Source: Candidatus Poribacteria bacterium | GTDB taxonomy: Bacteria; Poribacteria; WGA-4E; WGA-3G | Direction: 5' to 3' | Length of the DNA: 64,000 nt | Assembly: GCA_965197475.1 (NCBI GenBank) | Contig: CBDANF010000003.1 | Location: forward strand, 896,001-960,000 | Shown here: positions 9,658 through 34,198 of the stretch, piece after piece | How positions within the stretch are numbered: the first letter of the stretch is position 1 | Layout of the letters: each line of letters starts with the position of its first letter | Translations under genes and position numbers: made by a program | The notes under the pieces: model-generated | What the model saw: only the letters and a program-made list of their open reading frames with translations | Told to the model about the DNA's origin: nothing | The model's database searches: none

Positions 9658-9661
9658 TGAA

Positions 9662-15025: not shown

Positions 15026-15087
15026 TATCTTCCTTTTTTAGTCTGATGATGCGCTGCATCTCCTCAGACGCGATTCTACCCCCTGAA

Positions 15088-19573: not shown

Positions 19574-19713
19574 ATTTGATTACCTCTCTGCCAGTTCAGT
19601 TATTTACTGCGTTGGACAAATTGCTGCCTTATGTTACCACATCGTTATATATTATACACCTTGATTTGAAATTGGAAAATGATGTGAAAGAATAGATAAT
19701 TAATGCTACTGCC

Positions 19714-20553
19714 TTAGATCATTACCGAAGCTAACCCTTCTGAAAAATGCCATGCTTCACTAAATATCGGTTCAATAACCCACTCACCAGATTTGTCAAT
19801 GTACCCATATTTACCATTTTTTTTGACAGCCGCAAGTCCTTCAGAAAACATGTCGGCTCTATCAAATTGCGGTTCAATGACGAGTGCCCCAGTTTTATCT
19901 GCATATCCATATTTTCCGTTCACTTTAACGACAACCAACCCTTCAGAGAAATAGGGAACATACGCTTCAAATTCTAATTCAAGAACCACCTGACCGGTTT
20001 TATCAATAAACACATGCTTCCCATCTTTTGTTTTAACATAAGCGTAGTCCTCGGAGAAGTCCCATGTGTCTTTAAAATGAAGTGGAATTATTAATTTACC
20101 ATTTTTATCAATATATCCCTGATCACACTCATCGTCTAATCCCCAGACACGTGCCAATCCTTCAGAGAAAGAGAACAGGGATTCATAAGGCGGAATGAAT
20201 GCCCACTCGCCATCGGTGTTAATATAACCAACGGTCGTTTCGGTTCTTACGAGGGCGAGACCGTCTAAGAAGTTCTCAGCATCTTTGTACGTTGGCGATA
20301 TTCTCATGGTGCCATCCTTATTGATATAACCGTATTTATCATCTACGAAAATAGGAGCTAACCCGTTACCAAATGGATGAGCACACTTATATTGAAGGGG
20401 AATGGCAAAATCACCTTGTTTGTCAATGAACCCGTATACGCCATCAATCTCAACTGCTGCTAACCCTTCGGTATAGAGGCAGCAATAATCAAACTGTGGG
20501 GGGATAACGAGCCTCCCACTTTTATCAATATAACCGTATTTTGACATATTCAA
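19714..20553 (-). CDS. WG repeat protein (array copy 13)
   Basis: Repeated FSEGLA.V..DGKYGYIDK.G..VI.P.F. Confidence 0.9.
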   Translation of the reverse strand: MNMSKYGYIDKSGRLVIPPQFDYCCLYTEGLAAVEIDGVYGFIDKQGDFAIPLQYKCAHPFGNGLAPIFVDDKYGYINKDGTMRISPTYKDAENFLDGLALVRTETTVGYINTDGEWAFIPPYESLFSFSEGLARVWGLDDECDQGYIDKNGKLIIPLHFKDTWDFSEDYAYVKTKDGKHVFIDKTGQVVLELEFEAYVPYFSEGLVVVKVNGKYGYADKTGALVIEPQFDRADMFSEGLAAVKKNGKYGYIDKSGEWVIEPIFSEAWHFSEGLASVMI

Positions 20554-20555
20554 AA

Positions 20556-21425
20556 TTAGACTTGCACCGCAGCTAATCCTTCCGAAAAAGGCCAGGCTTC
20601 CTCAAATCTCGGTTCAATAACCCACTCACCCGATTTGTCAATATAACCAAACTTACCATCTACAGCGACAGGCGCAAATCCTTCAGAAAAACACTCAACT
20701 TTGTCAAATCGTGGTTCAATCGTGACTTTCCCAGTTTTATCTACGTATCCATATTTCTGACCGATTCTAACACCAATTAATCCTTCAGAGAAGTAGGGTA
20801 GATCGATTCTAAAGCCTAATTCAAGAACCACCTGCCCAGTTTTATCAATAAACCCGCGTTTCCCTTCCTTTGTTTTAACATAGGCATAACCTTCGGAGAA
20901 ATCGGATGTGTCTCCAAAATGTGGTGGAATGACCTCCGCTCCCGTTTTATCAATATACCCTTGATTGATTTCCTCGCCTTCCAGAGAAACTCTCGCCAAT
21001 CCTTCAGAAAAGGAGTACATGCATATATAAGGAGGTATGAGCACCCACTCACCATCGGTGTTAATATAACCTTCGGTTGTGTCAGTTCTTACATGGGCAA
21101 GACCATTGACAAAATCATCAACAGTACAAAAGATCGGCGAGATAACTACCTCTCCAGACTTATTGATATACCCCCACTTGCCATCTCTGGAAATAGGAGC
21201 TAATCCCTCACTGAAACAATATGCCCATTCAAATTGGAGAGGGATCACAAAATCCCCATGTGTGTCAATGAACCCGGATTTTCCATCAACCTCTACAGCA
21301 GCTACGCCTTCGGTAAAATAGCCGGGAGTATCAAACTGTGGAGGAATGATGAACTTTCCGCTTTTATCAATGTAACCGTATTTCGACATTTTCAAGACCT
21401 TCTTGATTGGCAAAGCGGTTTCCAT
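20556..21425 (-). CDS. WG repeat protein (copy 12)
   Basis: WG repeats; probable start at MSKYGY. Confidence 0.9.
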   Translation of the reverse strand: METALPIKKVLKMSKYGYIDKSGKFIIPPQFDTPGYFTEGVAAVEVDGKSGFIDTHGDFVIPLQFEWAYCFSEGLAPISRDGKWGYINKSGEVVISPIFCTVDDFVNGLAHVRTDTTEGYINTDGEWVLIPPYICMYSFSEGLARVSLEGEEINQGYIDKTGAEVIPPHFGDTSDFSEGYAYVKTKEGKRGFIDKTGQVVLELGFRIDLPYFSEGLIGVRIGQKYGYVDKTGKVTIEPRFDKVECFSEGFAPVAVDGKFGYIDKSGEWVIEPRFEEAWPFSEGLAAVQV

Positions 21426-21458
21426 CGCGAACGGATTGTACGGATTTACACAGAAACA

Positions 21459-22334
21459 TTAGATTATTACCGAAGCTAACCCCTCTGAAAAAAGTCCGGC
21501 TTCCTTGAATCTCGGTTCAATAACCCACTCACCCGATTTGTCAATGTAACCGGACTTACCATCAACAGCGGCAGACGCAAGCCCTTCAGAAAAATCACCG
21601 ACTTTATCAAATTTCGGTTCAATGACAAGTGAACCAGTTTTATCTGCGTATCCATATTTCCCATCGATTTTAACAGCAACCAATCCTTCAAAAAAGTAGG
21701 GACGATACGTTTCAAATGCTAAATCAAGAACCACCTGACCGGTTTTATCAATAAACACATGCTCCCCATCCTTGGTCTCAACATAGGCGTAACCTTCGGA
21801 AAAATTGTAGGTGTTTCTAAAGTGAGTGGGAATCACCTCCGCTCCCGTAATATCAATATACCCTTCATTGGATTCCTCTCCTTCTACCCAAACTATCGCT
21901 AATCCTTCAGAAAATGAGAAACAGCATACATAAGGCGGAATCAATGCCCATTCGCCATCGGTGTTAATATATCCTTCGGTAGTTTCGGTTATTACATGGG
22001 CAAGACCATCGGAGAAGTAAGTAGCATATTTAAACGTCGGCGGTATCACCACGGTGCCAGCTCTATTGATGTAACCGTATTTGCCATCTATGGAAACAGC
22101 GGCTAATCCTTCACTGAAATCATCTGCATATTCAAATTGGAAGGGAAGTGCAAACCCTCCGTGTTTGTCAATAAACCCGCATTTTCCATCAATCTCTACG
22201 GCGGCTACGCCTTCGGTATGATAACCGGGAGTATCAAACTGTGGAGGAATGATGAACTTTCCGCTTTTATCAATGTAACCGTATTTCGACATTTTCAAGA
22301 CCTTCTTGATTAGTAATGCGGTTTCCATCGCCAA
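21459..22334 (-). CDS. WG repeat protein (copy 11)
   Basis: WG repeats; nearly identical to 29017..29892 except the C-terminus. Confidence 0.9.
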   Translation of the reverse strand: MAMETALLIKKVLKMSKYGYIDKSGKFIIPPQFDTPGYHTEGVAAVEIDGKCGFIDKHGGFALPFQFEYADDFSEGLAAVSIDGKYGYINRAGTVVIPPTFKYATYFSDGLAHVITETTEGYINTDGEWALIPPYVCCFSFSEGLAIVWVEGEESNEGYIDITGAEVIPTHFRNTYNFSEGYAYVETKDGEHVFIDKTGQVVLDLAFETYRPYFFEGLVAVKIDGKYGYADKTGSLVIEPKFDKVGDFSEGLASAAVDGKSGYIDKSGEWVIEPRFKEAGLFSEGLASVII

Positions 22335-22361
22335 CGGATTGTACGGATTTACACAGAGACA

Positions 22362-23324
22362 TTAGATTATTACCGAAGCTAACCCCTCTGAAAAAAGTCC
22401 GGCTTCCTTGAATCTCGGTTCAATAACCCACTCACCCGATTTGTCAATGTAACCGGACTTACCATCTACAAAAAGCCCGCCTCGCCTGAATTTCGGATCA
22501 AAAACCCATTCACCCGATTTGTCAAAGTAACCATACTTACCATCTACAGCAACAGGTGCAAGCCCTTCAGAAAACCTCTCGACTCTATCAAATCTCGGTT
22601 CAATCACGACGCTCCCGGATTTATCTGCAAATCCGTATTGATGATCGATATTAACACCGATCAACCCTTCAGAGAAGTATGGAGGATAAAATATTAACGC
22701 GGATTCAAAAACCATCTGACCCGTTTTATCAATAAAACCACGTTTTCCTTCCTTTGTTTTAACGTAGGCATAACCTTCAGAGAAAGCAGACGTGTCTGCA
22801 AAGTGAGTGGGAATAACCTCCGCTCCCGTTATATCAATATACCCTTGATTGATTTCCTCGCCTTCCAGAGAAACTCTCGCCAATCCTTCAGAAAAGGAGT
22901 ACATGCATATATAAGGAGGTATGAGTGCCCACTCACCATCGGTGTTAATATAACCTTCGGTTGTTTCGGTCATTACATGGGCAAGACCATCGGAGAAGTA
23001 ATCAGCATCTTTAAACGTCGGCGGTATCACCACGGTGCCAACTCTATTGATGTAGCCGTATTTGCCATCTATGGAAACAGCGGCTAATCCTTCACTGAAA
23101 TCATCTGCATATTCAAATTGGAGGGGGATCACAAAATCACCCTGTTTGTCAATGAACCCGCATTTTCCATCAACCTCTACGGCGGTTAAACCTTCGGTAA
23201 AATAGCCGGGAGTATCAAACTGGGGTGGAATAACAATACTCCCACTTTTATCAATGTAACCGTATTTTGACATTTTCAAGACCTTCTTCATTAGTAATGC
23301 GGGTTTTCTTGACAAAACGGGCAC
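22362..23324 (-). CDS. WG repeat protein (copy 10)
   Basis: WG repeats with one extra short repeat. Confidence 0.9.
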   Translation of the reverse strand: MPVLSRKPALLMKKVLKMSKYGYIDKSGSIVIPPQFDTPGYFTEGLTAVEVDGKCGFIDKQGDFVIPLQFEYADDFSEGLAAVSIDGKYGYINRVGTVVIPPTFKDADYFSDGLAHVMTETTEGYINTDGEWALIPPYICMYSFSEGLARVSLEGEEINQGYIDITGAEVIPTHFADTSAFSEGYAYVKTKEGKRGFIDKTGQMVFESALIFYPPYFSEGLIGVNIDHQYGFADKSGSVVIEPRFDRVERFSEGLAPVAVDGKYGYFDKSGEWVFDPKFRRGGLFVDGKSGYIDKSGEWVIEPRFKEAGLFSEGLASVII

Positions 23325-23345
23325 CTATAGATTTATACCACCACA

Positions 23346-24230
23346 TTAGATTTTTACCGCAGCTAAACCCTCTGAAAAACAAGTAGCGTACCTAAATATC
23401 GGTTCAATCATCCACTTCCCAGTTTTGTCAATGTACCCATACTTCCCATTTATTTTGACAGGCGCGAGTCCTTCGGAAAACAAGTCGGCTTTATCAAATC
23501 GTGGTTCAATGACGAGTGCCCCAGTTTTGCCTGCATATCCATATTTTCCGTTCACCTTAACGACAACCAATCCTTCAGAGAAATAGGGAACATACGCTTC
23601 AAATTCTAATTCAAGTACCACTTGACCGGTTTTATCAATAAACATATACTTGCCTTGTTTTGTTTCAACATAGGCATAACCATCGGAGAAATCCCACGTG
23701 TCTTCAAAGCGGGATGGGATAATTAATTCACCGGCCTTATCAATATACCCTTCATCATATCCACCATCTTTTTCATTTTGGATACCGATTTGGGCAACTC
23801 CTTCTGAGAAATCATATAAAATTGTTTCACCGGATGGCGTGAGTGCCCATTCACCCGTAGTGTTAATATAGCCTTCAGTTGTGTCAGTTTTTGCACGAGC
23901 CAGACCATCGGAAAATACCCACGCCTCTCGAAAGGTGAGTGGAATGATTACCTTTCCAGACCTATTGATAAAACCGCACTTTTCATCTATGCAAATAGGT
24001 GCTAAACCATCGCTAAACCAAAGTGCCCATTTATATTGGAACGGGATCGCGAAATTACCTTGTTTGTCTATGAACCTGTACACTCCATCAATCTCCACAG
24101 CTGCTACACCTTCAGAATAACCGTAGCAGTCATCAAACTGTGGTGGAATGATGAACTTTCCGCTTTTATCAATGTAACCAAATTTTGACATTTTCAAGAC
24201 CTTCTTGATTGGCAAAGCGGTTTCCATCAC
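23346..24230 (-). CDS. WG repeat protein (copy 9)
   Basis: WG repeats. Confidence 0.9.
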   Translation of the reverse strand: MMETALPIKKVLKMSKFGYIDKSGKFIIPPQFDDCYGYSEGVAAVEIDGVYRFIDKQGNFAIPFQYKWALWFSDGLAPICIDEKCGFINRSGKVIIPLTFREAWVFSDGLARAKTDTTEGYINTTGEWALTPSGETILYDFSEGVAQIGIQNEKDGGYDEGYIDKAGELIIPSRFEDTWDFSDGYAYVETKQGKYMFIDKTGQVVLELEFEAYVPYFSEGLVVVKVNGKYGYAGKTGALVIEPRFDKADLFSEGLAPVKINGKYGYIDKTGKWMIEPIFRYATCFSEGLAAVKI

Positions 24231-24260
24231 GAATGGATTGTACGGATTTACACAGAAACA

Positions 24261-25220
24261 TTAGATTATTACCGAAGCTAACCCCTCTGAAAAAAGTCCG
24301 GCTTCCTTGAATCTCGGTTCAATAACCCACTCACCAGTTTTGTCAATGTAACCAGACTTCCCATCTACAAAAAGCCCGCCTCGCCTGAATGTCGGATCAA
24401 AAACCCATTCACCCGATTTGTCAAAGTAACCATACTTACCATCTACAGCAACAGGTGCAAGCCCTTCAGAAAACCTCTCGACTCTATCAAATCTCGGTTC
24501 AATCACGACGCTCCCGGATTTATCTGCAAATCCGTATTGATGATCGATATTAACACCGATCAACCCTTCAGAGAAGTATGGAGGATAAAATATTAACGCG
24601 GATTCAAAAACCATCTGACCCGTTTTATCAATAAAACCACGTTTTCCTTCCTTTGTTTTAACGTAGGCATAACCTTCAGAGAAAGCAGACGTGTCTGCAA
24701 AGTGAGTGGGAATAACCTCCGCTCCCGTTATATCAATATACCCTTGATTGATTTCCTCGCCTTCCAGAGAAACTCTCGCCAATCCTTCAGAAAAGGAGTA
24801 CATGCATATATAAGGAGGTATGAGTGCCCACTCACCATCGGTGTTAATATAACCTTCGGTTGTTTCGGTCATTACATGGGCAAGACCATCGGAGAAGTAA
24901 TCAGCATCTTTAAACGTCGGCGGTATCACCACAGTGCCAACTCTATTGATGTAGCCGTATTTGCCATCTATGGAAACAGGTGCTAATCCTTCACTGAACC
25001 AATGTGCACACTCATATTGGAGGGGGATCACAAAATCACCCTGTTTGTCAATGAACCCGGATTTTCCATCAATCTCTACAGATGCTATGCCTTCAGAATA
25101 TTCGTAGCAGTCATCAAACTGTGGTGGAATGACGAAACTCCCACTTTTATCAATGTATCCGTATTTTGACATTTTCAAAATTAGACTTGTACCAAAGCTA
25201 ACCCCTCCGAAAAACACCAA
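24261..25220 (-). CDS. WG repeat protein (copy 8)
   Basis: WG repeats; true start probably about 25172 (MSKYGY). Confidence 0.9.
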   Translation of the reverse strand: MVFFGGVSFGTSLILKMSKYGYIDKSGSFVIPPQFDDCYEYSEGIASVEIDGKSGFIDKQGDFVIPLQYECAHWFSEGLAPVSIDGKYGYINRVGTVVIPPTFKDADYFSDGLAHVMTETTEGYINTDGEWALIPPYICMYSFSEGLARVSLEGEEINQGYIDITGAEVIPTHFADTSAFSEGYAYVKTKEGKRGFIDKTGQMVFESALIFYPPYFSEGLIGVNIDHQYGFADKSGSVVIEPRFDRVERFSEGLAPVAVDGKYGYFDKSGEWVFDPTFRRGGLFVDGKSGYIDKTGEWVIEPRFKEAGLFSEGLASVII

Positions 25221-26164
25221 GCTTCCTTGAATCTCGGTTCAATCACCCACTCACCCGATTTGTCAATGTAACCATACTTAGCATCTACAAAAAGCCCGCC
25301 TCGCCTGAATGTCGGATCAGAAACCCATTCACCCGATTTGTCAAAGTAACCATACTTAGCATCTACAGCAGCAGGCGCAAGTCCTTCAGAAAAATCTCCG
25401 ACATTATCAAATCGCGGTTCAATCACGACGCTCCCGGATTTATCTGCAAATCCGTATTGATAATCGATATTAACACCGATCAACCCTTCAGAGAAGTATG
25501 GAGGATAAAATATTAACGCGGATTCAAGAACCATCTGACCAGTTTTATCAATAAAACAACGTTTTCCCTCCTTTGTTTTAACATAAGCATAACCTTCGGA
25601 GAAATCGGATATGCTTTCAAAGTCGGGTGGAATGACTATTGTCCCCATCCTATCAATATATCCCATATCCTCCCAATCCGTTTCTTCATTCCAGACACCA
25701 TGCCGAGCGAGGCCTTCAGAAAAACCGTATAACATGTGATCATCAGTGAATGTTAATGCTTTTTCACCAGATGTGTCAATATAGTGCTCATGTATAGCAC
25801 CATCAGTTGCCTTAGTTCTTACAAGGGCAAGACCATCGGAGAAGTAATCAGCATCTTTAAACGTCGGCGGTATCACCACGGTGCCGGCTTTATTGATGTA
25901 ACCGTATTTGTTGCCATCTATAGAAACAGCGGCTAATCCCTCACTGAAATCATATGCCGAGTGAAATTGGAGGGGAATTACAAAATCACCCTGCTTGTCA
26001 ATGAACCCGTATTTTCCATCAACCTCTACGGCGGCTATGCCATCGTTATAAAAGCCGGAAGTATCAAACTGCGGTGGAATGATGAACTTTCCGCTTTTAT
26101 CAATGTAACCGTATTTCGACATTTTCAAGACCTTCTTGATTAGTAATGCGGTTTCCATCGCCAA
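25181..26164 (-). CDS. WG repeat protein (copy 7)
   Basis: WG repeats; TKATDGAIHEHYID module shared with 29920..30900. Confidence 0.9.
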   Translation of the reverse strand: MAMETALLIKKVLKMSKYGYIDKSGKFIIPPQFDTSGFYNDGIAAVEVDGKYGFIDKQGDFVIPLQFHSAYDFSEGLAAVSIDGNKYGYINKAGTVVIPPTFKDADYFSDGLALVRTKATDGAIHEHYIDTSGEKALTFTDDHMLYGFSEGLARHGVWNEETDWEDMGYIDRMGTIVIPPDFESISDFSEGYAYVKTKEGKRCFIDKTGQMVLESALIFYPPYFSEGLIGVNIDYQYGFADKSGSVVIEPRFDNVGDFSEGLAPAAVDAKYGYFDKSGEWVSDPTFRRGGLFVDAKYGYIDKSGEWVIEPRFKEAWCFSEGLALVQV

Positions 26165-26191
26165 CGGATTGTACGGATTTACACAGAGACA

Positions 26192-27187
26192 TTAGATTAT
26201 TACCGCAGCTAACCCTTCTGAAAAAGGTTCGGCTTCCTTAAATCTCGGTTCAATAACCCACTCACCCGACTTGTCAATGTAACCATACTTACCTTCTACA
26301 AAAAACCCGGTTCCCTTGAATCTCGGTTCAATAACCCACTCTCCTGATTTGTCAATGTAACCGGACTTCCCATCTACAAAAAGCCCGCCTCGCCTGAATT
26401 TCGGATCAAAAACCCATTCACCCGATTTGTCAAAGTAACCATACTTACCATCTACAGCAACAGGTGCAAGCCCTTCAGAAAACCTCTCGACTCTATCAAA
26501 TCTCGGTTCAATCACGACGCTCCCGGATTTATCTGCAAATCCGTATTGATGATCGATATTAACACCGATCAACCCTTCAGAGAAGTATGGAGGATAAAAT
26601 ATTAACGCGGATTCAAAAACCATCTGACCCGTTTTATCAATAAAACCACGTTTTCCTTCCTTTGTTTTAACGTAGGCATAACCTTCAGAGAAAGCAGACG
26701 TGTCTGCAAAGTGAGTGGGAATAACCTCCGCTCCCGTTTTATCAATATACCCTTGATTGATTTCCTCGCCTTCCAGAGAAACTCTCGCCAATCCTTCAGA
26801 AAAGGAGTACATGCATATATAAGGAGGTATGAGTGCCCACTCACCATCGGTGTTAATATAACCTTCGGTTGTTTCGGTCATTACATGGGCAAGACCATCG
26901 GAGAAGTAATCAGCATCTTTAAACGTCGGCGGTATCACCACGGTGCCAACTCTATTGATGTAGCCGTATTTGCCATCTATGGAAACAGCGGCTAATCCTT
27001 CACTGAAATCATCTGCATATTCAAATTGGAAGGGAATTACAAAATCACCTTGTTTATCAATGAAACCACATTTCCCATCAACTTCAACAGCAGCTACGCC
27101 ATCGGTATAATAGCCAGGAGTATCAAACTGTGGTGGAATGATGAACTTTCCGCTTTTATCAATGTAACCATATTTTGACATTTTCAA
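26192..27187 (-). CDS. WG repeat protein (copy 6)
   Basis: WG repeats with two extra short repeats. Confidence 0.9.
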   Translation of the reverse strand: MKMSKYGYIDKSGKFIIPPQFDTPGYYTDGVAAVEVDGKCGFIDKQGDFVIPFQFEYADDFSEGLAAVSIDGKYGYINRVGTVVIPPTFKDADYFSDGLAHVMTETTEGYINTDGEWALIPPYICMYSFSEGLARVSLEGEEINQGYIDKTGAEVIPTHFADTSAFSEGYAYVKTKEGKRGFIDKTGQMVFESALIFYPPYFSEGLIGVNIDHQYGFADKSGSVVIEPRFDRVERFSEGLAPVAVDGKYGYFDKSGEWVFDPKFRRGGLFVDGKSGYIDKSGEWVIEPRFKGTGFFVEGKYGYIDKSGEWVIEPRFKEAEPFSEGLAAVII

Positions 27188-27189
27188 AA

Positions 27190-28122
27190 TTAGACTTGTA
27201 CCGAAGCTAACCCCTCTGAAAAAAGTCCGGCTTCCTTGAATCTCGGTTCAATAACCCACTCACCAGTTTTGTCAATGTAACCGGACTTCCCATCTACAAA
27301 AAGCCCGCCTCGCCTGAATGTCGGATCAAAAACCCATTCACCCGATTTGTCAAAGTAACCATACTTAGCATCTACAACAACAGCCGCAAGCCCTTCAGAA
27401 AAATGCCCAACTCTATCAAATCTCGGTTCAATCACGACTCTTCCTGTTTTATCTGCAAATCCGTATTTCTGATCGATCTTAACACCGATCAACCCTTCAG
27501 AAAAGTAGGAATAACCATCGACCTTAAACGCTAATTCGAGAACCATCTGACCCGTTTTATCAATAAACCCGCGTTTCCCTTCCTTTGTTTTAACATAGGC
27601 ATAACCTTCGGAGAAATCGGAGGTGTCTCTAAAGTGAGCGGGAATAACCTCCGCTCCCGTTATATCAATATACCCTTCATTGGATTCCTCTCCTTCTACC
27701 CAAACTATCGCTAATCCTTCAGAAAATGAGAAACAGCATACATAAGGCGGAATCAATGCCCATTCGCCATCGGTGTTAATATATCCTTCGGTAGTTTCGG
27801 TTATTACATGGGCAAGACCATCGGAGAAGTAAGTAGCATATTTAAACGTCGGCGGTATCACCACGGTGCCAGCTCTATTGATGTAACCGTATTTGCCATC
27901 TATGGAAACAGCGGCTAATCCTTCACTGAAATCATCTGCATATTCAAATTGGAAGGGAATTACAAAATCACCTTGTTTATCAATGAAACCACATTTCCCA
28001 TCAACTTCAACAGCAGCTACGCCATCGGTATAATAGCCGGGAGTATCAAAACGTGGAGGAATGATGAACTTTCCGTTTTTATCAATGTAACCATATTTAG
28101 ACATTTTCAAGACCTTCTTCAT
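27190..28122 (-). CDS. WG repeat protein (copy 5)
   Basis: WG repeats. Confidence 0.9.
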   Translation of the reverse strand: MKKVLKMSKYGYIDKNGKFIIPPRFDTPGYYTDGVAAVEVDGKCGFIDKQGDFVIPFQFEYADDFSEGLAAVSIDGKYGYINRAGTVVIPPTFKYATYFSDGLAHVITETTEGYINTDGEWALIPPYVCCFSFSEGLAIVWVEGEESNEGYIDITGAEVIPAHFRDTSDFSEGYAYVKTKEGKRGFIDKTGQMVLELAFKVDGYSYFSEGLIGVKIDQKYGFADKTGRVVIEPRFDRVGHFSEGLAAVVVDAKYGYFDKSGEWVFDPTFRRGGLFVDGKSGYIDKTGEWVIEPRFKEAGLFSEGLASVQV

Positions 28123-28174
28123 TAGTAATGCGGGTTTCCATCGCGAATGGATTGTACGGATTTACACAGAAATA

Positions 28175-29056
28175 TTAGATTTTTACCGCAGCTAACCCCT
28201 CTGAAAAACAAGTAGCGTACCTAAATATCGGTTCAATCATCCACTTCCCAGTTTTGTCAATGTACCCATACTTCCCATTTATTTTGACAGCCGCAAGTCC
28301 TTCAGAAAACATGTCGGCTCTATCAAATTGCGGTTCAATGACGAGTGCCCCAGTTTTGTCTGCATATCCATATTTTCCGTTCACCTTAACGACAACCAAC
28401 CCTTCAGAGAAATAGGGAACATACGCTTCAAATGCTAATTCAAGAACCACCTGACCGGTTTTATCAATAAACACCTGCTTCCCATCTTTTGTTTTAACAT
28501 AAGCGTAGTCCTCGGAGAAGTCCCATGTGTCTTTAAAATGAAGTGGAATTATTAATTTACCATTTTTATCAATATATCCCTGATCACACTCATCGTCTAA
28601 TCCCCAGACACGTGCCAATCCTTCAGAGAAAGAGAACAGGGATTCATAAGGCGGAATGAATGCCCACTCGCCATCGGTGTTAATATAACCAACGGTCGTT
28701 TCGGTTCTTACGAGGGCGAGACCGTCTAAGAAGTTCTCAGCATCTTTGTACGTTGGCGATATTCTCATGGTGCCATCCTTATTGATATAACCGTATTTAT
28801 CATCTACGAAAATAGGAGCTAACCCGTTACCAAATGGATGAGCACACTTATATTGAAGGGGAATGGCAAGATCACCTTGTTTGTTAATAAATCCGTATAC
28901 GCCATCAATCTCCACTGCTGCTAACCCTTCGGTATGACCGTAGCAATAATCAAACTGTGGTGGAATGACGAAACTCCCACTTTTATCAATGTATCCGTAT
29001 TTTGACATTTTCAAAATTAGACTTGTACCAAAGCTAACCCCTCCGAAAAACGCCAA
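28175..29056 (-). CDS. WG repeat protein (copy 4)
   Basis: WG repeats; core nearly identical to 19714..20553. Confidence 0.9.
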   Translation of the reverse strand: MAFFGGVSFGTSLILKMSKYGYIDKSGSFVIPPQFDYCYGHTEGLAAVEIDGVYGFINKQGDLAIPLQYKCAHPFGNGLAPIFVDDKYGYINKDGTMRISPTYKDAENFLDGLALVRTETTVGYINTDGEWAFIPPYESLFSFSEGLARVWGLDDECDQGYIDKNGKLIIPLHFKDTWDFSEDYAYVKTKDGKQVFIDKTGQVVLELAFEAYVPYFSEGLVVVKVNGKYGYADKTGALVIEPQFDRADMFSEGLAAVKINGKYGYIDKTGKWMIEPIFRYATCFSEGLAAVKI

Positions 29057-29892
29057 GCTTCACTAAATCTCGGTTCAATAACCCACTCTCCTGATTTGTC
29101 AAAGTACCCATACTTTCCGTCTACAGCAACTGCCGCAAGTCCTTCAGAAAAATCACCGACTTTATCAAATTTCGGTTCAATGACAAGTGAACCAGTTTTA
29201 TCTGCGTATCCATATTTCCCATCGATTTTAACAGCAACCAATCCTTCAAAAAAGTAGGGACGATACGTTTCAAATGCTAAATCAAGAACCACCTGACCGG
29301 TTTTATCAATAAACACATGCTCCCCATCCTTGGTCTCAACATAGGCGTAACCTTCGGAAAAATTGTAGGTGTTTCTAAAGTGAGTGGGAATCACCTCCGC
29401 TCCCGTAATATCAATATACCCTTCATTGGATTCCTCTCCTTCTACCCAAACTATCGCTAATCCTTCAGAAAATGAGAAACAGCATACATAAGGCGGAATC
29501 AATGCCCATTCGCCATCGGTGTTAATATATCCTTCGGTAGTTTCGGTTATTACATGGGCAAGACCATCGGAGAAGTAAGTAGCATATTTAAACGTCGGCG
29601 GTATCACCACGGTGCCAGCTCTATTGATGTAACCGTATTTGCCATCTATGGAAACAGCGGCTAATCCTTCACTGAAATCATCTGCATATTCAAATTGGAA
29701 GGGAAGTGCAAACCCTCCGTGTTTGTCAATAAACCCGCATTTTCCATCAATCTCTACGGCGGCTACGCCTTCGGTATGATAACCGGGAGTATCAAACTGT
29801 GGAGGAATGATGAACTTTCCGCTTTTATCAATGTAACCGTATTTCGACATTTTCAAGACCTTCTTGATTAGTAATGCGGTTTCCATCGCCAA
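29017..29892 (-). CDS. WG repeat protein (copy 3)
   Basis: WG repeats. Confidence 0.9.
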   Translation of the reverse strand: MAMETALLIKKVLKMSKYGYIDKSGKFIIPPQFDTPGYHTEGVAAVEIDGKCGFIDKHGGFALPFQFEYADDFSEGLAAVSIDGKYGYINRAGTVVIPPTFKYATYFSDGLAHVITETTEGYINTDGEWALIPPYVCCFSFSEGLAIVWVEGEESNEGYIDITGAEVIPTHFRNTYNFSEGYAYVETKDGEHVFIDKTGQVVLDLAFETYRPYFFEGLVAVKIDGKYGYADKTGSLVIEPKFDKVGDFSEGLAAVAVDGKYGYFDKSGEWVIEPRFSEAWRFSEGLALVQV

Positions 29893-29919
29893 CGGATTGT
29901 ACGGATTTACACAGAGACA

Positions 29920-30900
29920 TTAGATTATTACCGAAGCTAACCCCTCTGAAAAAAGTCCGGCTTCCTTGAATCTCGGTTCAATAACCCACTCACCCGACTT
30001 GTCAATGTAACCGGACTTACCATCTACAAAAAGCCCGCCTCGTCTGAATTTCGGATCAAAAACCCATTCACCCGATTTGTCAAAGTAACCATACTTAGCA
30101 TCTACAACAACAGCCGCAAGCCCTTCAGAAAAATGTCCGACATTATCAAATCGCGGTTCAATCACGACGCTCCCGGATTTATCTGCAAATCCGTATTGAT
30201 GATCGATATTAACACCGATCAACCCTTCAGAGAAGTATGGAGGATAAAATATTAACGCGGATTCAAGAACCATCTGACCAGTTTTATCAATACACCCACT
30301 TTTTCCCTCCTTTGTTTTAACATAAGCATAACCTTCGGAGAAATCGGATATGCTTTCAAAGTCGGGTGGAATGACTATTGTCCCCATCCTATCAATATAT
30401 CCCATATCAAACGTATCTTCTTTTTCATTCCAGACACCATGCCGAGCGAGGCCTTCAGAAAAACCGTATAACATGTGATCATCAGTGAATGTTAATGCTT
30501 TTTCACCAGATTTGTCAATATAGTGCTCATGTATAGCACCATCAGTTGCCTTGGTTCTTACAAGGGCAAGACCATCGGAGAAGTAAGTAGCATATTTAAA
30601 CGTCGGCGGTATCACTACAGTGCCGGATCTATTGATGTAACCGTATTTGCCATCTATTGAAACAACGGCAAATCCTTCGCTGAAATCATCTACATATTCA
30701 AATTGGAGGGGAATCACAAAATCACCCCGCTTGTCAATGAAACCGCATTTTCCATCAATCTCTACAGATGCTACGCCTTCGATATGATAACCGGGAGTAT
30801 CAAACTGTGGAGGAATGATGAACTTTCCGCTTTTATCAATGTAACCGTATTTCGACATTTTCAAGACCTTCTTGATTAGTAATGCGGTTTCCATCGCCAA
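29920..30900 (-). CDS. WG repeat protein (copy 2)
   Basis: WG repeats. Confidence 0.9.
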   Translation of the reverse strand: MAMETALLIKKVLKMSKYGYIDKSGKFIIPPQFDTPGYHIEGVASVEIDGKCGFIDKRGDFVIPLQFEYVDDFSEGFAVVSIDGKYGYINRSGTVVIPPTFKYATYFSDGLALVRTKATDGAIHEHYIDKSGEKALTFTDDHMLYGFSEGLARHGVWNEKEDTFDMGYIDRMGTIVIPPDFESISDFSEGYAYVKTKEGKSGCIDKTGQMVLESALIFYPPYFSEGLIGVNIDHQYGFADKSGSVVIEPRFDNVGHFSEGLAAVVVDAKYGYFDKSGEWVFDPKFRRGGLFVDGKSGYIDKSGEWVIEPRFKEAGLFSEGLASVII

Positions 30901-30927
30901 CGGATTGTACGGATTTACACAGAGACA

Positions 30928-31887
30928 TTAGATTATTACCGCAGCTAACCCTTCTGAAAAAGGTTCGGCTTCCTTAAATCTCGGTTCAATAACCCACTCA
31001 CCCGACTTGTCAATGTAACCATACTTACCTTCTACAAAAAACCCGGTTCCCTTGAATCTCGGTTCAATAACCCACTCTCCTGATTTGTCAAAGTACCCAT
31101 ACTTTCCGTCTACAGCAACTGCCGCAAGTCCTTCAGAAAAATCACCGACTTTATCAAATTTCGGTTCAATGACAAGTGAACCAGTTTTATCTGCGTATCC
31201 ATATTTCCCATCGATTTTAACAGCAACCAATCCTTCAAAAAAGTAGGGACGATACGTTTCAAATGCTAAATCAAGAACCACCTGACCGGTTTTATCAATA
31301 AACACATGCTCCCCATCCTTGGTCTCAACATAGGCGTAACCTTCGGAAAAATTGTAGGTGTTTCTAAAGTGAGTGGGAATCACCTCCGCTCCCGTAATAT
31401 CAATATACCCTTCATCGAACTCCTCTCCTTCCAACGAAACTTTCGCCAATCCTTCAGAAAAGGAGTAAATATCTCCATAAGGAGGTATGAGTACCAATTC
31501 GCCTTCGGTGTTAATATACCCTTCGGTAGTTTCGGTTATTACATGGGCAAGACCATCGAAGAAGTAATAAGCATTTTTAAACGTCGGCAGTATCACTACA
31601 GTGCCGGATCTATTGATGTAACCGTATTTGCCATCTATGGAAACAGCGGCTAATCCTTCACTGAAATCCTCTGCATATTCAAATTGGAGGGGAAGTGCAA
31701 ACCCTCCGTGTTTGTCAATAAACCCGCATTTTCCATCAATCTCTACGGCGGCTACGCCTTCGGTATGATAACCGGGAGTATCAAACCGTGGCGGAATAAC
31801 AATTCTCCCACTTTTATCAATATAGCCAAATTTCGACATCTTATGTACCTCTTTTTTAGCAAGCGGGGCGTAGCATCTGTGTCGCAC
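30928..31887 (-). CDS. WG repeat protein (copy 1)
   Basis: WG repeats; AAAGAGG RBS before ATG at about 31839 (MSKFGY). Confidence 0.9.
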   Translation of the reverse strand: MRHRCYAPLAKKEVHKMSKFGYIDKSGRIVIPPRFDTPGYHTEGVAAVEIDGKCGFIDKHGGFALPLQFEYAEDFSEGLAAVSIDGKYGYINRSGTVVILPTFKNAYYFFDGLAHVITETTEGYINTEGELVLIPPYGDIYSFSEGLAKVSLEGEEFDEGYIDITGAEVIPTHFRNTYNFSEGYAYVETKDGEHVFIDKTGQVVLDLAFETYRPYFFEGLVAVKIDGKYGYADKTGSLVIEPKFDKVGDFSEGLAAVAVDGKYGYFDKSGEWVIEPRFKGTGFFVEGKYGYIDKSGEWVIEPRFKEAEPFSEGLAAVII

Positions 31888-31914
31888 GCCCCGCTTTTCA
31901 AACGTTAGAAGATT

Positions 31915-32872
31915 CTAAGGTGTTAGGATAAGCAACCCACCAACAGGTGCAGCAGGGGTGGGTAATAGCGCAATGCCAATGAGCGTTTTTCCACCTTTGT
32001 AGATCAGATATCCTGCACCAAGTCCCCCAGCAAGAGTCAACAGTCTACTGGGTGAAAACCAACTACCACCACTCGTTCGATTCATCCCTTTTTTAATTTC
32101 CTTTGCTTTTCCCTTAGAACTTCTCGGCAAGTTCTCAATAGTTTTGTCACCTCCTCCAATTTTCCATCCAGGGCTTTCCGCTGTGGGCGGATACACGTTT
32201 ATGTGATTTCCATCTGGGAAGGTAACATCATAATGGGGACCACCATGGCCTGAAGGGTCTTTTTTCCATATTTCTTCGTGTTCACCCTTTGCACCACCCC
32301 CCTTGTGTCTGGCAGGCCCCCGGTCAGGCTCCCTGTACCCTGAGTCTCTTGGTGGTATGCGTGTGAGTTCCACGACTTGTGCGTTATTGCCAGAAACAAC
32401 CTGATTCCCCAAAGCTAACACGTAGAAAGCCCATTCAACATCTCTACTATATGTGATGTTAAACTCATTTGTATCTTCACAGTATGTCACGGACTCAATG
32501 GGAACCGTGAATTCGTCGTAAACTGTCACGGTGTAAGAGTCCGAGTCTGAATCTATCGGCACTGTCGGATCTTCCTGACCATCAACAGGGAAAACCTCTG
32601 CTGTGATCTCGTACGCGTCGCCTATTGCACTACCACTGTTGAATATATATTCAAAATAAGAGGTCGTGTCTGTTCCATTACCGTAGTCTGTGTATGCCAA
32701 CGTTCCAAATCCGGATTCACACGGACTTTTTACATACCAGAAAACAACTCTATAAGGTTGGTTAAATGAAGCTTGACTGTATTGCGTAGTACCTGAGATA
32801 ATTGTGGTTAACCCTCCTGAACTTTGGCCAACGTAATCTACGGTGATCGCCGCATCAACGGCGGCGGAAATA
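31915..32872 (-). pseudogene. 5'-truncated polymorphic-toxin-like protein with Ntox37-like C-terminal domain
   Basis: Frame stays open upstream of the TTG at 32700 up to the IS630 end (..SAAVDAAITVDY..PYRVVFWYVKSPCESGFGTLAYTDYGNG); tip motif IWKKDPSGHGGPHYDVTFPDGNHINVYP then a hydrophobic Gly/Ala tail. Confidence 0.65.
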
Positions 32873-32889
32873 ATACCATTTCTGAATAA

Positions 32890-33438
32890 TTATATTCCAT
32901 TTGCGACTTTCGTGAAATATTTAAAATTTGTGATTTGAGCAATAGCTGCCTTCGTATACTTTCTCAAGATTTGTGTGATTTTGTCCTGCATTTCCTCTAT
33001 TGACCCCAATGTGTGCTGAAACAATTTGGCTTTGATGTCTTGCCAGAGTCTTTCGATCGGGTTCAACTCTGGACTATAAGGGGGTAGAAAAATCAAGGCG
33101 ATATTGTCAGGAAGTTGTAGCGATTTCGCCTGATGAAAACGACCATTATCAAGCACAAGGACATTTAGCGTCTTTGGAAAAGTCTTTGCTAACTCATCAA
33201 TGCATACTTGGAAACAGACACCATTGAGCCAGGGCATTTCAAGGAAGAAACTTTCTCCTGTTATCGGTTCCACAGCTCCGTATAGATAAAGGCTCTGGTA
33301 AGTGTGATCAACATTGGCAATCGGTTTAACACCGCGTAAGGTGGGATGCCGAGACGACACAGGCAAAAGACCACACCTTGACTCGTCTTGGCAAAAAAGT
33401 CGGACGCTTTGAAAAGAAGATGCCTTCTCCGAAATCAC
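32890..33438 (-). CDS. IS630 transposase, DDE part
   Basis: QDESR, LDNGRFH, LPPYSPELNPIERLW. Confidence 0.93.
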   Translation of the reverse strand: MISEKASSFQSVRLFCQDESRCGLLPVSSRHPTLRGVKPIANVDHTYQSLYLYGAVEPITGESFFLEMPWLNGVCFQVCIDELAKTFPKTLNVLVLDNGRFHQAKSLQLPDNIALIFLPPYSPELNPIERLWQDIKAKLFQHTLGSIEEMQDKITQILRKYTKAAIAQITNFKYFTKVANGI

Positions 33439-33482
33439 CTCCTCAACTTTGGTAGCGAAGTTAGCAACGAACGCATCACACG

Positions 33483-33947
33483 CTACATCGTTTTTTTATG
33501 ACTTTTGCGAGGCACTTTGAGTTTCGCATTCCATTTATACCGAACTAACGCATGAACTGTTTTATAGTGCATTTGGACACCGAAGGTTTCTTCAATATAA
33601 TCTGTTATCTGTTGATAACTGGAAAAACCTTCTGGTTTTTGAAGTTCCGCTCGCAGCAGCTCTTGTTGTTCTTTGGATAACCGAGGGGGACACCCCGGGG
33701 AATAATCACGATCCAAAAGCGCATCAAGTCCTTTAGTCTCATAAGTCACTATCCAGTGTCCAATCGTTTTTCGGCTGACACCTAACCTCTCAGCGACTTG
33801 CTTGCGAGTTATTGCTTGACCACTACGAAATAGGTAAAGGGCTGTCAATCTTTGCTTTTGATAACCTACTGATGTCTTTCTCAACAGCCTTTTCAACTCT
33901 GAAACACTTTCTGTAATCTCTGGAGGCTTTATGTGCATTGGTATCAA
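33483..33947 (-). CDS. IS630 transposase, HTH part
   Basis: HTH, ends in KLKVPRKSHKK; a -1 shift at A7 reads KKNDVACDAFVANF.. into the DDE ORF. Confidence 0.9.
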   Translation of the reverse strand: MIPMHIKPPEITESVSELKRLLRKTSVGYQKQRLTALYLFRSGQAITRKQVAERLGVSRKTIGHWIVTYETKGLDALLDRDYSPGCPPRLSKEQQELLRAELQKPEGFSSYQQITDYIEETFGVQMHYKTVHALVRYKWNAKLKVPRKSHKKTM

Positions 33948-34160
33948 TCCTATGATTTGTATAATTGGAAAAAGTATAGCAGAAATTGAAAACTTTTAAA
34001 AGGATAAATATATACAAGAAATGGTATAAATAGATGTGTCAAATTTTGTCAATAGTCTGGAAAGAAAGTCCATTAGTTATTATAACATTTCGCCCTGATG
34101 GGGCTGCTCCCAAGATGTATTTCCCACAAGTTTTCAATTAGTTTTCGGTATAAACCACTC

Positions 34161-34195
34161 GTAGATTGGGTTGAACACCGTGAAACCCAATCTAC
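34161..34195. repeat. REP-like palindrome / terminator
   Basis: GTAGATTGGGTT-N11-AACCCAATCTAC right after the stop of 34199..35251. Confidence 0.5.
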
Positions 34196-34198
34196 TTA

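Follow-up and report, generated by a model that had tools for sequence, protein, structure and literature searches.

A 5'-truncated Ntox37-like toxin gene followed by 13 WG-repeat genes in a Poribacteria genome, a candidate toxin-immunity array

Our results indicate that the 5.7-Mb genome of a Candidatus Poribacteria (a sponge symbiont) harbors, on the minus strand, a 5'-truncated gene for an Ntox37-like toxin (31915-32872) followed by 13 genes for WG_beta_rep proteins (PF14903; 19714-31887). The window, i.e., the stretch of 64,000 nucleotides that was analyzed, provides the coordinates used throughout (Table 1). We regard the locus, with moderate confidence, as a conflict module of the polymorphic-toxin type in which the toxin gene is inactivated and the immunity array expanded, and it seems to a similar degree probable that WG_beta_rep is a new immunity family inside a known kind of system. 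If, as we consider most likely, the WG genes protect against such toxins, they would represent a new kind of toxin-immunity protein. A toxin-immunity interpretation had been put forward in the initial annotation, and the sequence comparisons described here support it.

Table 1. Features of the locus (window coordinates)
Feature	Position	Strand	Basis
WG13, type B, 277 aa; last gene of the array	19714..20547	-	ORF, paralog comparison, tree
WG12, type A, 277 aa	20556..21389	-	ORF, paralog comparison, tree
WG11, type A, 277 aa	21459..22292	-	ORF, paralog comparison, tree
WG10, type A, 303 aa	22362..23273	-	ORF, paralog comparison, tree
WG9, type B, 281 aa	23346..24191	-	ORF, paralog comparison, tree
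WG8, type A, 303 aa	24261..25172	-	ORF, paralog comparison, tree
WG7, type A, 313 aa	25181..26122	-	ORF, paralog comparison, tree
WG6, type A, 329 aa	26192..27181	-	ORF, paralog comparison, tree
WG5, type A, 304 aa	27190..28104	-	ORF, paralog comparison, tree
WG4, type B, 277 aa	28175..29008	-	ORF, paralog comparison, tree
WG3, type A, 277 aa	29017..29850	-	ORF, paralog comparison, tree
WG2, type A, 312 aa	29920..30858	-	ORF, paralog comparison, tree
WG1, type A, 303 aa; adjoins the toxin gene downstream	30928..31839	-	ORF, Pfam, AF2, tree
9-bp perfect inverted repeat, GCGGGGCGT...ACGCCCCGC	31863..31894	-	Seen in sequence; 75-nt spacer between toxin stop and WG1 start
Toxin gene, 5'-truncated (~18 codons gone)	31915..32872	-	ORFs and alignment to full-length P0002
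Basic linker and C-terminal hydrophobic hairpin	31918..32184	-	Conserved residues; weak PF15654 matches in homologs
Ntox37-like core, TRIPPRDSGY...WKKDPSGHGGPHYDV...HINVYPP	32185..32364	-	Sub-threshold PF15535; homologs above cutoff; hhalign
N-terminal secreted, beta-rich toxin part	32377..32871	-	Paralogs in same genome; no Pfam family
IS630-family insertion sequence	32871..34027	-	1157 bp; orfA HTH 33483-33947, orfB DDE_3 32890-33438

The 13 WG genes had been described as intact, co-oriented, and free of signal peptides, and this is borne out by their ORFs, starts, and dN/dS values. The head-to-tail ORFs (279 to 331 aa) each contain an ATG that opens the sequence MSK[YF]GYIDKSG, and the resulting products of 277 to 329 aa begin directly with the first repeat and therefore have no hydrophobic N terminus. 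The three WG proteins that were scanned match PF14903 with 287 to 302 bits and 8 or 9 repeats, and all 94 matches to this repeat in the whole genome lie inside the array. Pairwise identity among the paralogs is 58 to 96%, and dN/dS is 0.15 to 0.56 (median, 0.30) in all 78 pairs, so that no copy resembles a decaying pseudogene; the genes remain under purifying selection. The predicted structure of WG1 (AF2; pLDDT, 93.8) is all-beta and beta-propeller-like, and this fold, together with the absence of an export signal, identifies the WG proteins as cytoplasmic, beta-propeller-like proteins. Within each repeat, the paralogs vary most at the five residues that precede the F of FSEGLA and at +6/+8; the excess of dN at the variable columns is only apparent and circular, because the columns were picked for their variability.

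The open toxin frame runs from 32889 down to 31915 (324 aa), of which 32873 to 32889 is IS sequence, and the earliest in-frame start codon left is a TTG at 32700. The full-length homolog P0002 (335 aa) is 65% identical to the window toxin in the homolog search and 61% identical over 323 alignment columns, and its residue 19 aligns with the first residue past the IS junction, number 7 of the frame, indicating that the toxin has lost only its start codon and most of its signal peptide. An IS630 element had been said to cut the toxin gene and spare the array; indeed, about 18 N-terminal codons are lost and the 13 WG genes are whole. Intact relatives (P0002, P0003, P0004, P0006, and the genes of genomes G105 and G072) have ordinary Sec-type signal peptides, followed by one or two lineage-specific beta-rich domains, the Ntox37-like core, a basic linker, and a hydrophobic tail. 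The N-terminal part, which the initial annotation took for a secreted type distinct from Rhs/CdiA, gave no match in the Pfam scan, to RHS and CdiA or otherwise, and has paralogs at five other places in the genome, in secreted proteins, the best of them (44% identity, residues 12 to 137) in a 534-aa protein with a signal peptide. By these comparisons it is a lineage-specific domain.

The C-terminal region of the open frame carries GYREP..EIWKKDPSGHGGPHYDVTFPDGNHINVYP and the hydrophobic end that had been noted previously. The two-segment tail (about 31918-32043; LLTLAGGLGAGYLIYKGGK TLIGIALLPTPAAPVGGLLILTP) is conserved at G-Y-L-I-Y, T, and P...P-COOH. Tox-WTIP (PF15654), a predicted pore-forming two-helix tail, occupies the same place behind the Ntox37 core in P0009, P0015, L057, L085, and L089, and the window tail is similar in its Y-L-[IL]-Y-[KR]-G-x-[KR], second hydrophobic segment, and final proline but has KGGK and LPTP instead of RxxR and Wx[ST]IP. 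The Pfam scan gave no PF15654 match in the window protein and weak ones on the tails of three homologs (E, 0.0014 to 0.0096); in its location and amino acid composition, the tail resembles Tox-WTIP. A membrane immunity protein would be the more usual counterpart of a hydrophobic tail that possibly acts on membranes, a point against soluble WG immunity.

The expectation that WG genes would also follow toxin homologs elsewhere proved correct within Poribacteria, where a WG gene comes next, within about 17 to 90 nt, after all six toxin copies that have both core and tail. These copies derive from four genomes (the present one, G000; G016; G072; and G105, with three at two loci) and five genomic contexts with up to class-level divergence; G072 belongs to another family of the same class, and its toxin is followed by at least three WG genes. 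No core-plus-tail copy without a WG gene was found among the six. As for tail-only remnants, a WG gene comes next in 2 of 3, the exception being remnant L115 of G105, which has none nearby; the order in G105 is toxin-WG-truncated toxin-WG-...-tail remnant-WG. WG genes without a toxin or remnant are present at 10 loci in 9 genomes, and most genomes with WG genes are without the toxin (of 61 genomes, WG matches were found in 20 and the toxin in 3). A toxin always beside WG genes that are themselves often alone is the pattern expected for an immunity gene, although the same asymmetry would be compatible with a WG function of another, independent kind.

Within the genus, this WG subfamily is found in only 8 of 36 sampled congeners. 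WG copy number at the syntenic site is 0 (all five WG-less congeners), 1, 1, 1 (frameshifted), 2, or 13, the accessory island is absent from all five WG-less congeners, and comparison of the syntenic sites marks the locus as an insertion hot spot. In the tree, all 13 array genes fall into mostly toxin-less clades, shared with toxin-less WG genes of the genus and set apart (98/95 support) from the toxin-adjacent WG clade of G105 and G016, and WG1 thus may not be the coevolved partner of this toxin. The three toxin copies in the genus are all damaged (by the IS, by a frameshift, and as a remnant), so that no functional toxin-WG pair is seen there.

These features raise the possibility, which we consider doubtful, that a repeat protein with a cellular or host-related role of its own (e.g., a cytoplasmic scaffold or sensor) has expanded here independently of toxins, and that toxin genes often end up beside WG genes because the two share variable, recombination-prone islands. 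The toxin-less WG loci, the clustering of the G000 genes with toxin-less copies, and the hot spot all agree with this, as does the wide occurrence of WG_beta_rep beyond toxin contexts, with a lipoprotein form and a retron-associated accessory cluster described in sections of PMC8855297 and PMC13712802, respectively. It is countered by the immediate, co-oriented adjacency across all five contexts and class-level divergence, and by G105, in which WG genes are interleaved with truncated toxin pieces much like orphan toxin-immunity modules; a chance position beside one of the 1 to 13 WG genes that a genome of about 5 Mb carries would be very unlikely. The conserved adjacency implies a functional link of an unspecified kind, and a cytoplasmic, propeller-like protein would be equally suited to the role of adaptor or inhibitor. 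A partnership other than immunity, with the WG protein as cytoplasmic chaperone, stabilizer, export adaptor, or activator, is nevertheless improbable given the ordinary Sec-type signal peptides of the intact relatives, the persistence of toxin-less WG genes, and the consideration that a chaperone without a client would not stay, reach 13 copies, and keep purifying selection.

The resemblance of the core to Ntox37 (PF15535), likewise proposed in the initial annotation, falls below the Pfam cutoff of 27.8 bits when the window toxin itself is searched (E, 0.0044; 18 bits) and is established through its homologs. Among 1.84 billion representatives, 18 relatives were found, 8 of which, including P0002 and P0003 (58% identical to the window toxin), pass the cutoff and 14 of which reach an E of ≤0.01. 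By hhalign, the Poribacteria-type family matches other Ntox37 proteins with 99.2% probability (E, 1.3e-19) over 42 to 70 profile columns, more than the motif alone, in an alignment that stops short of the hydrophobic tail. The core is all-beta with the family motif PPxxSGY...W.KD.S.HGGPH[WY]DV...H.NV.PP and the invariant residues H44, G46, H48, D50, V51, N60, and P63 (153-aa numbering); the window toxin reads KGEHEEIW in place of the family D..GN.W. These comparisons identify the core of the upstream gene as Ntox37-like at the level of sequence homology. Its toxicity would follow by analogy, because Ntox37 cores tip RHS proteins (C-terminally in P0014-P0016 and P0018) and small immunity-type genes come next. 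That the gene encodes a nontoxic, secreted or membrane-anchored surface protein sharing only the short HGGPH[WY]DV motif, with no conflict system, is accordingly unlikely in view of the extent of the homology, the homologs above the cutoff, and the RHS tips and neighboring genes, even though the window toxin and the scanned Poribacterial genome copies stay under the Pfam cutoff at 18 to 26 bits (except a stand-alone 67-aa core in G080, at 33.8 bits, followed by another small ORF that is not WG), the G072 copy gave no Pfam match whatsoever, and the literature searched holds no experimentally characterized Ntox37 member.

Screening of 185,579 species genomes gave 60 loci with the Ntox37 motif, of which 3, all in Poribacteria, have WG genes, compared with 0 of the 57 outside Poribacteria. 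In the latter, the core is mostly the protein end and the next gene is immediate, namely, a HEAT-repeat gene (10 of 53), a TPR gene (1 or 2), or otherwise an ORF of about 100 aa or an unannotated one; a terminal core immediately followed by a ~100-aa ORF or HEAT gene is the classical toxin-immunity layout. The initial annotation had named, as findings that would speak against it, the lack of a toxin-domain match together with a lack of toxicity, or else other immunity families behind toxin homologs and WG arrays apart from toxins. The latter two are observed in part, since the distant non-Poribacterial toxins have other families next and WG genes occur without toxins.

Among the 53 further loci that were scanned, none had Imm32, the reported immunity family of Ntox37, as the neighbor at an E of ≤0.001. 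The window toxin shares with Ntox37 systems the all-beta core, the H-x-[DH] signature (here HYD), and the layout of toxin and then protecting gene, but its core is not C-terminal (the linker and the hydrophobic tail add about 90 residues after it), its N-terminal carrier, a domain that is small, lineage-specific, and exported via Sec, is neither RHS nor WXG, and its neighbor is WG instead of Imm32. The acquired interbacterial defense systems of Bacteroidales are heterogeneous, often recombinase-associated islands of orphan immunity genes against T6SS effectors; the WG array is similar in persisting with no toxin to match, in a community that is dense and host-associated, and differs in consisting of one family beside a Sec-type toxin. 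Rhs and CDI loci hold orphan toxin-immunity modules, which G105 resembles with its full toxin-WG, 5'-truncated toxin-WG, and tail remnant plus WG; the window differs in having no toxin fragments amid the WG genes, and the Poribacterial toxins differ as short Sec proteins that contain neither Rhs nor FHA repeats. Such modules are also described in part of the 2012 survey (PMC3482391), according to which most toxin domains of this sort are nucleases, by prediction only.

The covered part of the same survey (Zhang et al. 2012) defines homogeneous polyimmunity loci as tandem paralogs of one family in one orientation with very short spacers, never interrupted by toxins, whose copy number varies among related genomes and which are suggested to provide preemptive cover against non-kin toxins. 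The families given there are SUKH, Imm6, Imm11, Imm28, Imm33, Imm36, and Imm41, and the repeat-type immunity proteins include HEAT, ankyrin, and LRR; WG_beta_rep was not found in that part of the main text. The WG array is alike in its single orientation, spacers of 8 to 75 nt, copy number that varies between related genomes, and absence of toxin genes within and differs in the repeated family and the directly abutting toxin gene. It fits a homogeneous polyimmunity locus within an accessory island.

On the toxin-immunity reading, the intact toxin would be a small Sec-exported protein that WG proteins would bind and neutralize once it is in the cytoplasm. The 13 paralogs would be related binders that differ mainly in one loop, which is the same in each of the repeats, and they would give protection from variant toxins of neighboring Poribacteria in the sponge. 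The toxin start and signal peptide have been lost to the IS630-family element, with the putative WG immunity genes being kept, a loss that has probably turned the cell into an immune nonproducer.

About nine further full-length copies of the element are present in the genome, most of them with a TA duplication; here, a TA is found at the junction on the toxin side and none on the far side. The far-side flank was considered as the missing toxin 5' end and rejected, as the DNA there instead flanks a porin-like gene on its 3' side. This flank and the missing duplication point to insertion followed by adjacent deletion or rearrangement. Judging from its sequence, the inverted repeat between the toxin gene and WG1 is possibly an attenuator or terminator hairpin.

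Our results indicate that the 5.7-Mb, three-contig genome containing the window has a single WG locus, as all 94 PF14903 (WG_beta_rep) repeat matches above cut-off genome-wide lie inside one array of 13 co-oriented genes (coordinates of this and other features are in the table below). Every gene starts with ATG and encodes a product of 277 to 329 aa beginning with MSK[YF]GYIDKSG, and the spacers between a stop codon and the next ATG range from 8 to about 75 nt. The products are cytoplasmic; they open with the first repeat and have no hydrophobic leader. The three copies scanned gave 287, 291.6, and 301.7 bits (Pfam gathering cut-off, 25.6 bits) over 8 or 9 repeats of about 35 residues. Pairwise identity among the paralogues is 58 to 96%, and dN/dS is below 1 in all 78 pairs (median, 0.30; range, 0.15 to 0.56; median dS, 0.57), so that all 13 look like maintained genes. 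Positive selection, considered on account of a median dN/dS of 1.55 at the 35 most variable columns, was rejected because these columns had been picked for their variability. Scanning 19300-34300 for promoters and terminators gave no excess over shuffled sequences (38 versus 35.3 and 15 versus 13.1, respectively), and as these counts equal the shuffled expectation, we claim no operon structure. GC skew over 20000-32000 is -0.16 to -0.22, versus about -0.05 to -0.07 in the flanks, with GC content unchanged at 0.42; the skew probably reflects the repeated coding sequence.

The gene preceding the array encodes a candidate toxin with an Ntox37-like core and a hydrophobic tail. Its family was searched in 61 relatives, by profile in 176 genomes of the phylum, and by the pattern HGG[PE]H[WY]DV in 185,579 species, one genome each, and an HMM derived from the 13 paralogues of the array was run over every fetched locus. 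Ten pieces were found in Poribacteria, namely, six copies with core and tail, three tail-only remnants, and one stand-alone core. The core-and-tail copies belong to the window's own genome (G000), G016 (divided between two frames), G105 (three copies over two loci, one of which has two), and G072, which belongs to another family of this class and differs strongly in base composition; since their flanking genes differ, the six represent five separate genomic contexts. Each of the six has a WG gene on its own strand within about 17 to 90 nt downstream, and in G072 at least three WG genes follow; this is the conserved, immediate, and co-oriented adjacency expected of a toxin-immunity pair. Two of the three remnants also precede a WG gene, in G007 (a WG gene carrying a stop codon) and in the third module of a G105 locus; the remaining one, at locus L115 of G105, does not. 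The stand-alone core, in G080 (67 aa; 33.8 bits, above the Ntox37 cut-off), overlaps the start of a small ORF (87 to 115 aa, with no Pfam family) that is not a WG gene, and the two may form a minimal toxin-immunity pair in another family of Poribacteria. These two exceptions among ten pieces count against an immunity role for WG.

The expectation in the initial annotation that toxin homologues would be followed by WG genes was thus borne out for the core-and-tail copies within Poribacteria but failed outside it, where none of 57 confirmed loci had a WG gene within 6 kb. The first downstream ORF was scanned at 53 of these loci, the other four having none or being duplicates; HEAT repeats were detected in 10 and TPR in 1, with one further weak TPR match, and the remainder, mostly of about 100 aa, had no Pfam family. 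Ntox37 subfamilies therefore use different neighbours, other repeat proteins among them, and WG appears, from these gene contexts, to be the Poribacterial solution. We consider it fairly likely that an exported toxin is neutralised by WG immunity proteins, with the 13-copy array broadening the cover.

WG genes of the array's subfamily also occur without a toxin, at ten loci in nine genomes, and most WG-bearing genomes lack the toxin. No toxin remnant was found at these ten loci by hmmsearch up to E = 10, and tblastn gave one 12-residue match (E = 6.7). Four of them correspond to the window's syntenic site (PSD1, DUF1501, and, further on, an 828-aa PPC-domain protein), which holds one WG gene in G035 and in G016, one frameshifted copy in G029, two in G031, and 13 in the window. 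In five of five WG-less congeners checked, the PPC gene lies 191 to 2063 bp after DUF1501, and WG gene, toxin, and porin-like gene are all absent; in one of them, G003, the flanking proteins are 92 to 97% identical to those of the window. As these congeners lack the insert, the porin-like gene, the IS, the toxin gene, and the 13 WG genes constitute an accessory island at a variable site. Of the 36 congeners sampled, only 8 have the WG subfamily.

A maximum-likelihood tree of 32 WG proteins places WG1, 2, 3, 5, 6, 7, 8, 10, 11, and 12 (numbered from the toxin) in one clade, type A, shared with the site-1 copies from G035, G016, and G031, and WG4, 9, and 13 in another, type B, together with copies of G011, G026, G007, and G034. 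The array accordingly combines two or more old WG lineages, in the interleaved order A A A B A A A A B A A A B. Both types are separated (98/95 support) from the clade of toxin-adjoining WG genes in G105 and G016, and WG1, going by this grouping, is not obviously the co-inherited partner of the window toxin. WG genes next to a toxin turn up in several parts of the tree (G072 clade, G105/G016 clade, and type A), a pattern that would fit, though it does not prove, an old linkage with repeated loss of the toxin. All three toxin copies of the window's own genus are damaged, by the IS in G000, by split frames in G016, and by reduction to a remnant in G007, and the WG genes persist.

That the window's WG genes group with toxin-less copies, and that most WG genomes have no toxin, counts against the immunity reading and is what an independent WG function, unrelated to toxin immunity, would produce; we regard such a function as unlikely in view of the WG gene behind every core-and-tail toxin. 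A further point against the immunity reading is that, were the tail to do the killing, a soluble immunity protein would be unusual. WG proteins could instead be a non-immunity partner of the toxin, such as a chaperone, which would likewise place the two genes side by side; this alternative seems improbable to us, as WG genes have outlasted all three toxins of the genus.

An immunity protein would have to bind the toxin, and the WG proteins have features compatible with binding. The AlphaFold2 model of WG1, from a 32-sequence alignment, is all beta (pLDDT, 93.8; pTM, 0.88), and its best Foldseek matches in the PDB are beta-propellers (BamB, designed 8- to 10-bladed propellers, and Fbw7), with TM-scores of only 0.45 to 0.57; as modelled, the WG protein is propeller-like, yet no close copy of any solved fold. 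Searching sequences of solved structures with the WG profile gave no match. Among the paralogues, variability is highest, in every repeat, at the five residues preceding the F of FSEGLA and also at +6 and +8 after the motif, and hardly any change is seen at G, I, P, F, SEG, A, and V. This periodicity is compatible with one variable face.

The toxin gene has lost its 5' end to the IS630-family element. Its open frame of 324 aa gave 61% identity over 323 columns in a BLASTP comparison with the full-length homologue P0002 (335 aa), and residue 7, the first past the IS junction, aligns with residue 19 of P0002, at the end of the signal peptide. Only the start codon, most of the signal peptide, and the promoter have therefore been lost, and the remainder is intact. 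The resemblance to Ntox37 that had been suggested from family motifs holds at the level of profile comparison, whereas the window protein itself stays under the Pfam cut-off, with 18 bits against PF15535 (E = 0.0044; profile positions 52 to 76 of 78; cut-off, 27.8 bits) and 19.2 bits in the genome search. With the last 153 toxin residues as the query, phmmer found 18 proteins at E ≤ 0.001 among 1.84 billion representatives. Eight of these relatives pass the Ntox37 cut-off, including P0002 (65% identical; 35.3 bits) and P0003 (29.4 bits), and 14 match Ntox37 at E ≤ 0.01; the other four (P0001, P0005, P0006, and P0013) have no Ntox37 match. RHS-type sequence precedes the domain in several relatives, as a Pfam RHS_repeat match in P0015 and as a typical RHS end in P0014, P0016, and P0018. 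In hhalign, the Poribacteria-type alignment matched an alignment of seven other relatives, three of them over the cut-off, with 99.2% probability (E = 1.3e-19; 42 columns) and an alignment of RHS/WTIP-type members with 99.2% over 70 columns. H-Y-D is present in the window protein, and H44, H48, and D50 are invariant across 11 sequences. On these profile alignments, we accept the window protein as an Ntox37 homologue, without formal Pfam membership. Its sub-threshold score and a stretch that is altered where the family reads D..GN.W count against the immunity reading; the low score would also be expected if the upstream gene were not a toxin at all, which hardly seems likely beside such profile matches.

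The text of the 2012 survey describes Ntox37 as an all-beta domain with conserved E, [KR], and Hx[DH], linked to Imm32, and predicts that most novel Ntox domains are nucleases (PMC3482391). The best hit of the toxin profile among sequences of solved structures had E = 0.22 (antibody chains), and this search gave no match. A toxin variant about 92% identical occurs in a sequencing run of another study; a metagenome scan with the Poribacteria-type toxin profile gave 219 pattern matches, none of which was confirmed, and hence no further contexts. Two RNA libraries of a single study contain contigs that agree with the toxin gene over 31922-32578 with no mismatches, one of them with a 2-nt gap, and that closely match parts of WG1; with DNA carry-over possible, they are only a weak hint of toxin and WG1 transcription.

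After the Ntox37-like core, the toxin has a basic linker and then two hydrophobic segments, LLTLAGGLGAGYLIY-KGGK-TLIGIALLPTPAAPVGGLLILTP. Elsewhere the core is succeeded by Tox-WTIP, a predicted two-helix pore-forming tail (47.3 bits in P0009 and 45 bits in P0015). Tox-WTIP (PF15654; cut-off, 25 bits) has two membrane helices with RxxR and Wx[ST]IP motifs; the window protein has no Pfam match to it, and its motif positions read KGGK and LPTP. Three homologues (P0005, L046b, and L045) match weakly, with 16.5 to 19.2 bits (E = 0.0014 to 0.0096), and the hhalign profile-profile alignment ends ahead of the tail, so that the likeness is one of place and composition, short of membership. A PEP-CTERM or sortase-type sorting signal was dropped as an explanation of the tail, as no such motif was seen on inspection of the sequence. 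The N-terminal part has no Pfam, RHS, or CdiA match, and paralogues of it occur in further proteins of the genome that carry signal peptides, in agreement with the proposal that it is a secreted-type domain rather than one of Rhs or CdiA type.

Taken in sequence, the proposed immunity mechanism would begin with an exported toxin entering nearby cells, perhaps with the aid of its hydrophobic tail, and acting in the cytoplasm, by family expectation as a nuclease. There a matching WG protein would bind and block it, and 13 paralogues would widen the cover against variant toxins. In the window's genome, the toxin is no longer exportable.

The array matches a homogeneous polyimmunity locus as the survey text defines it (PMC3482391), with at least four tandem genes of one family in one orientation, small spacers, a toxin-free interior, and a variable number, here 0, 1, 1, 1 (frameshifted), 2, or 13 WG genes at the same site. 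It differs in that WG_beta_rep is no established immunity family. The searched part of the main text of that survey does not mention WG_beta_rep as an immunity family; the literature found that names WG_beta_rep gives it neither a toxin-immunity context nor a tested role, and we found none that pairs Poribacteria with polymorphic toxins. NCBIfam and PADLOC returned no meaningful match for the toxin or the WG proteins. One paper naming WG_beta_rep lists it, in a passage on repeat families, as having no known structure, and PMC13712802 names it among the accessory clusters that go with a retron lineage. In G105, the order toxin, WG, truncated toxin, WG, two other genes, tail remnant, WG recalls the orphan modules of Rhs/CDI systems. 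From comparative sequence, then, this would be a system of known kind with a new immunity family and in a new host phylum.

If the immunity reading is true, WG_beta_rep, a large repeat family, gains a function, a beta-propeller-type scaffold joins the known polymorphic-toxin immunity families, and extended polyimmunity loci reach Poribacteria, a dominant uncultivated sponge-symbiont phylum. The decay of the toxin in three congeners, with immunity genes that persist and multiply, would illustrate a common evolutionary path. The pair is small enough for assays in E. coli (about 150 aa for the toxin region and about 300 aa for a WG protein), and the 13 variants offer a specificity panel. Our results also raise the more tentative possibility, which we would not call probable, that WG_beta_rep beta-propellers are an unrecognised immunity superfamily and the array a recombining binder repertoire, with a variable loop per blade, that confers pre-emptive resistance to Sec-exported Ntox37-plus-membrane-tail toxins of co-resident Poribacteria. 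If so, it would be genomic evidence of strain-level toxin warfare, and of escape by immune non-producers, shaping an uncultivated sponge-symbiont phylum.

The element that truncated the toxin gene has the DDE_3 transposase, N-terminal HTH, terminal inverted repeats, and TA of the IS630 family. Its termini are ATACCATTTC...GAAATGGTAT; most other full-length copies have TA on both sides, and the window copy has it at the toxin side only. About nine further full-length copies (91 to 100% identity) are present in the genome, plus fragments. The transposase lies in two frames, orfA and orfB, joined at a seven-A run (CATAAAAAAACG), and some ten near-identical full-length copies suggest an active element with programmed frameshifting. 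The 171 bp past the IS, distal to the toxin, is 3'-flanking sequence of a porin-like gene (Phenol_MetA_deg). None of 12 left flanks of other IS copies encodes the lost start and signal peptide of the toxin, and neither the 171-bp left flank nor the toxin-WG1 spacer matched the relatives' loci. Promoter-like hexamers inside the IS end (TTCACG-16 nt-TATAAT, 10/12) face outward, toward the truncated toxin gene and the WG array; they are only a lead, the overall scan being no richer than shuffles. Among sequencing runs with about one-quarter of the sampled words, the IS region was by far the deepest in the three examined, and such runs probably contain mainly the IS. Behind the porin-like gene, a stem-loop (GTAGATTGGGTT...AACCCAATCTAC) is part of a palindromic element of about 31 nt, REP-like in look, with at least six more copies in the genome at about 90% identity.

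Positions of features in the window (window coordinates) and at other loci
Feature	Position	Strand	Remarks
Multi-haem cytochrome gene run	2181-15573	-	
Eco57I-like match	15851-16879		weak
13 head-to-tail WG ORFs	19714-31887	-	
Toxin frame	32889-31915	-	
Promoter-like hexamers	32889-32916	-	
IS630-family element	32871-34027	-	orfA HTH + orfB DDE_3 (PF13358, 87.7 bits)
orfA/orfB junction	near 33483-33495		
Other IS630 copies, e.g.	G000:C3:2481200-2482356; C2:715660-716817		
Stem-loop	34158-34195		
IS1595-family (ISXO2-like) transposase genes	46107-47063; 47990-48970; 58497-59375		
TPR-repeat gene	47060-47935		
N6/N4 DNA methylase genes	60601-62428		two, adjacent; second apparently partial
Stand-alone Ntox37 core, G080	L117 7321-7762		
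GFGPYPELP-motif protein (256-263 aa)	L046 9869-11166; L045 7907-8988; L115 7239-8030; L003 3-749		L003, own genome

Elsewhere in the window lies what looks like a gene cluster for a respiratory complex, a long run encoding multi-haem cytochromes c, a cytochrome b/b6 pair, a Rieske protein, and an ethylbenzene-dehydrogenase-like haem domain. Two of the IS1595-family genes flank the TPR-repeat gene, in a region rich in mobile elements. In G105, a protein with an N-terminal membrane segment and the motif (I/V)SP(Y/F)GFGPYPELP, for which no Pfam family was found, recurs between the toxin-WG modules and may be a further component of these islands. It is often followed by a secreted protein of 96 to 168 aa, and its paralogue in the window's genome adjoins a protein carrying the N-terminal domain of the toxin.
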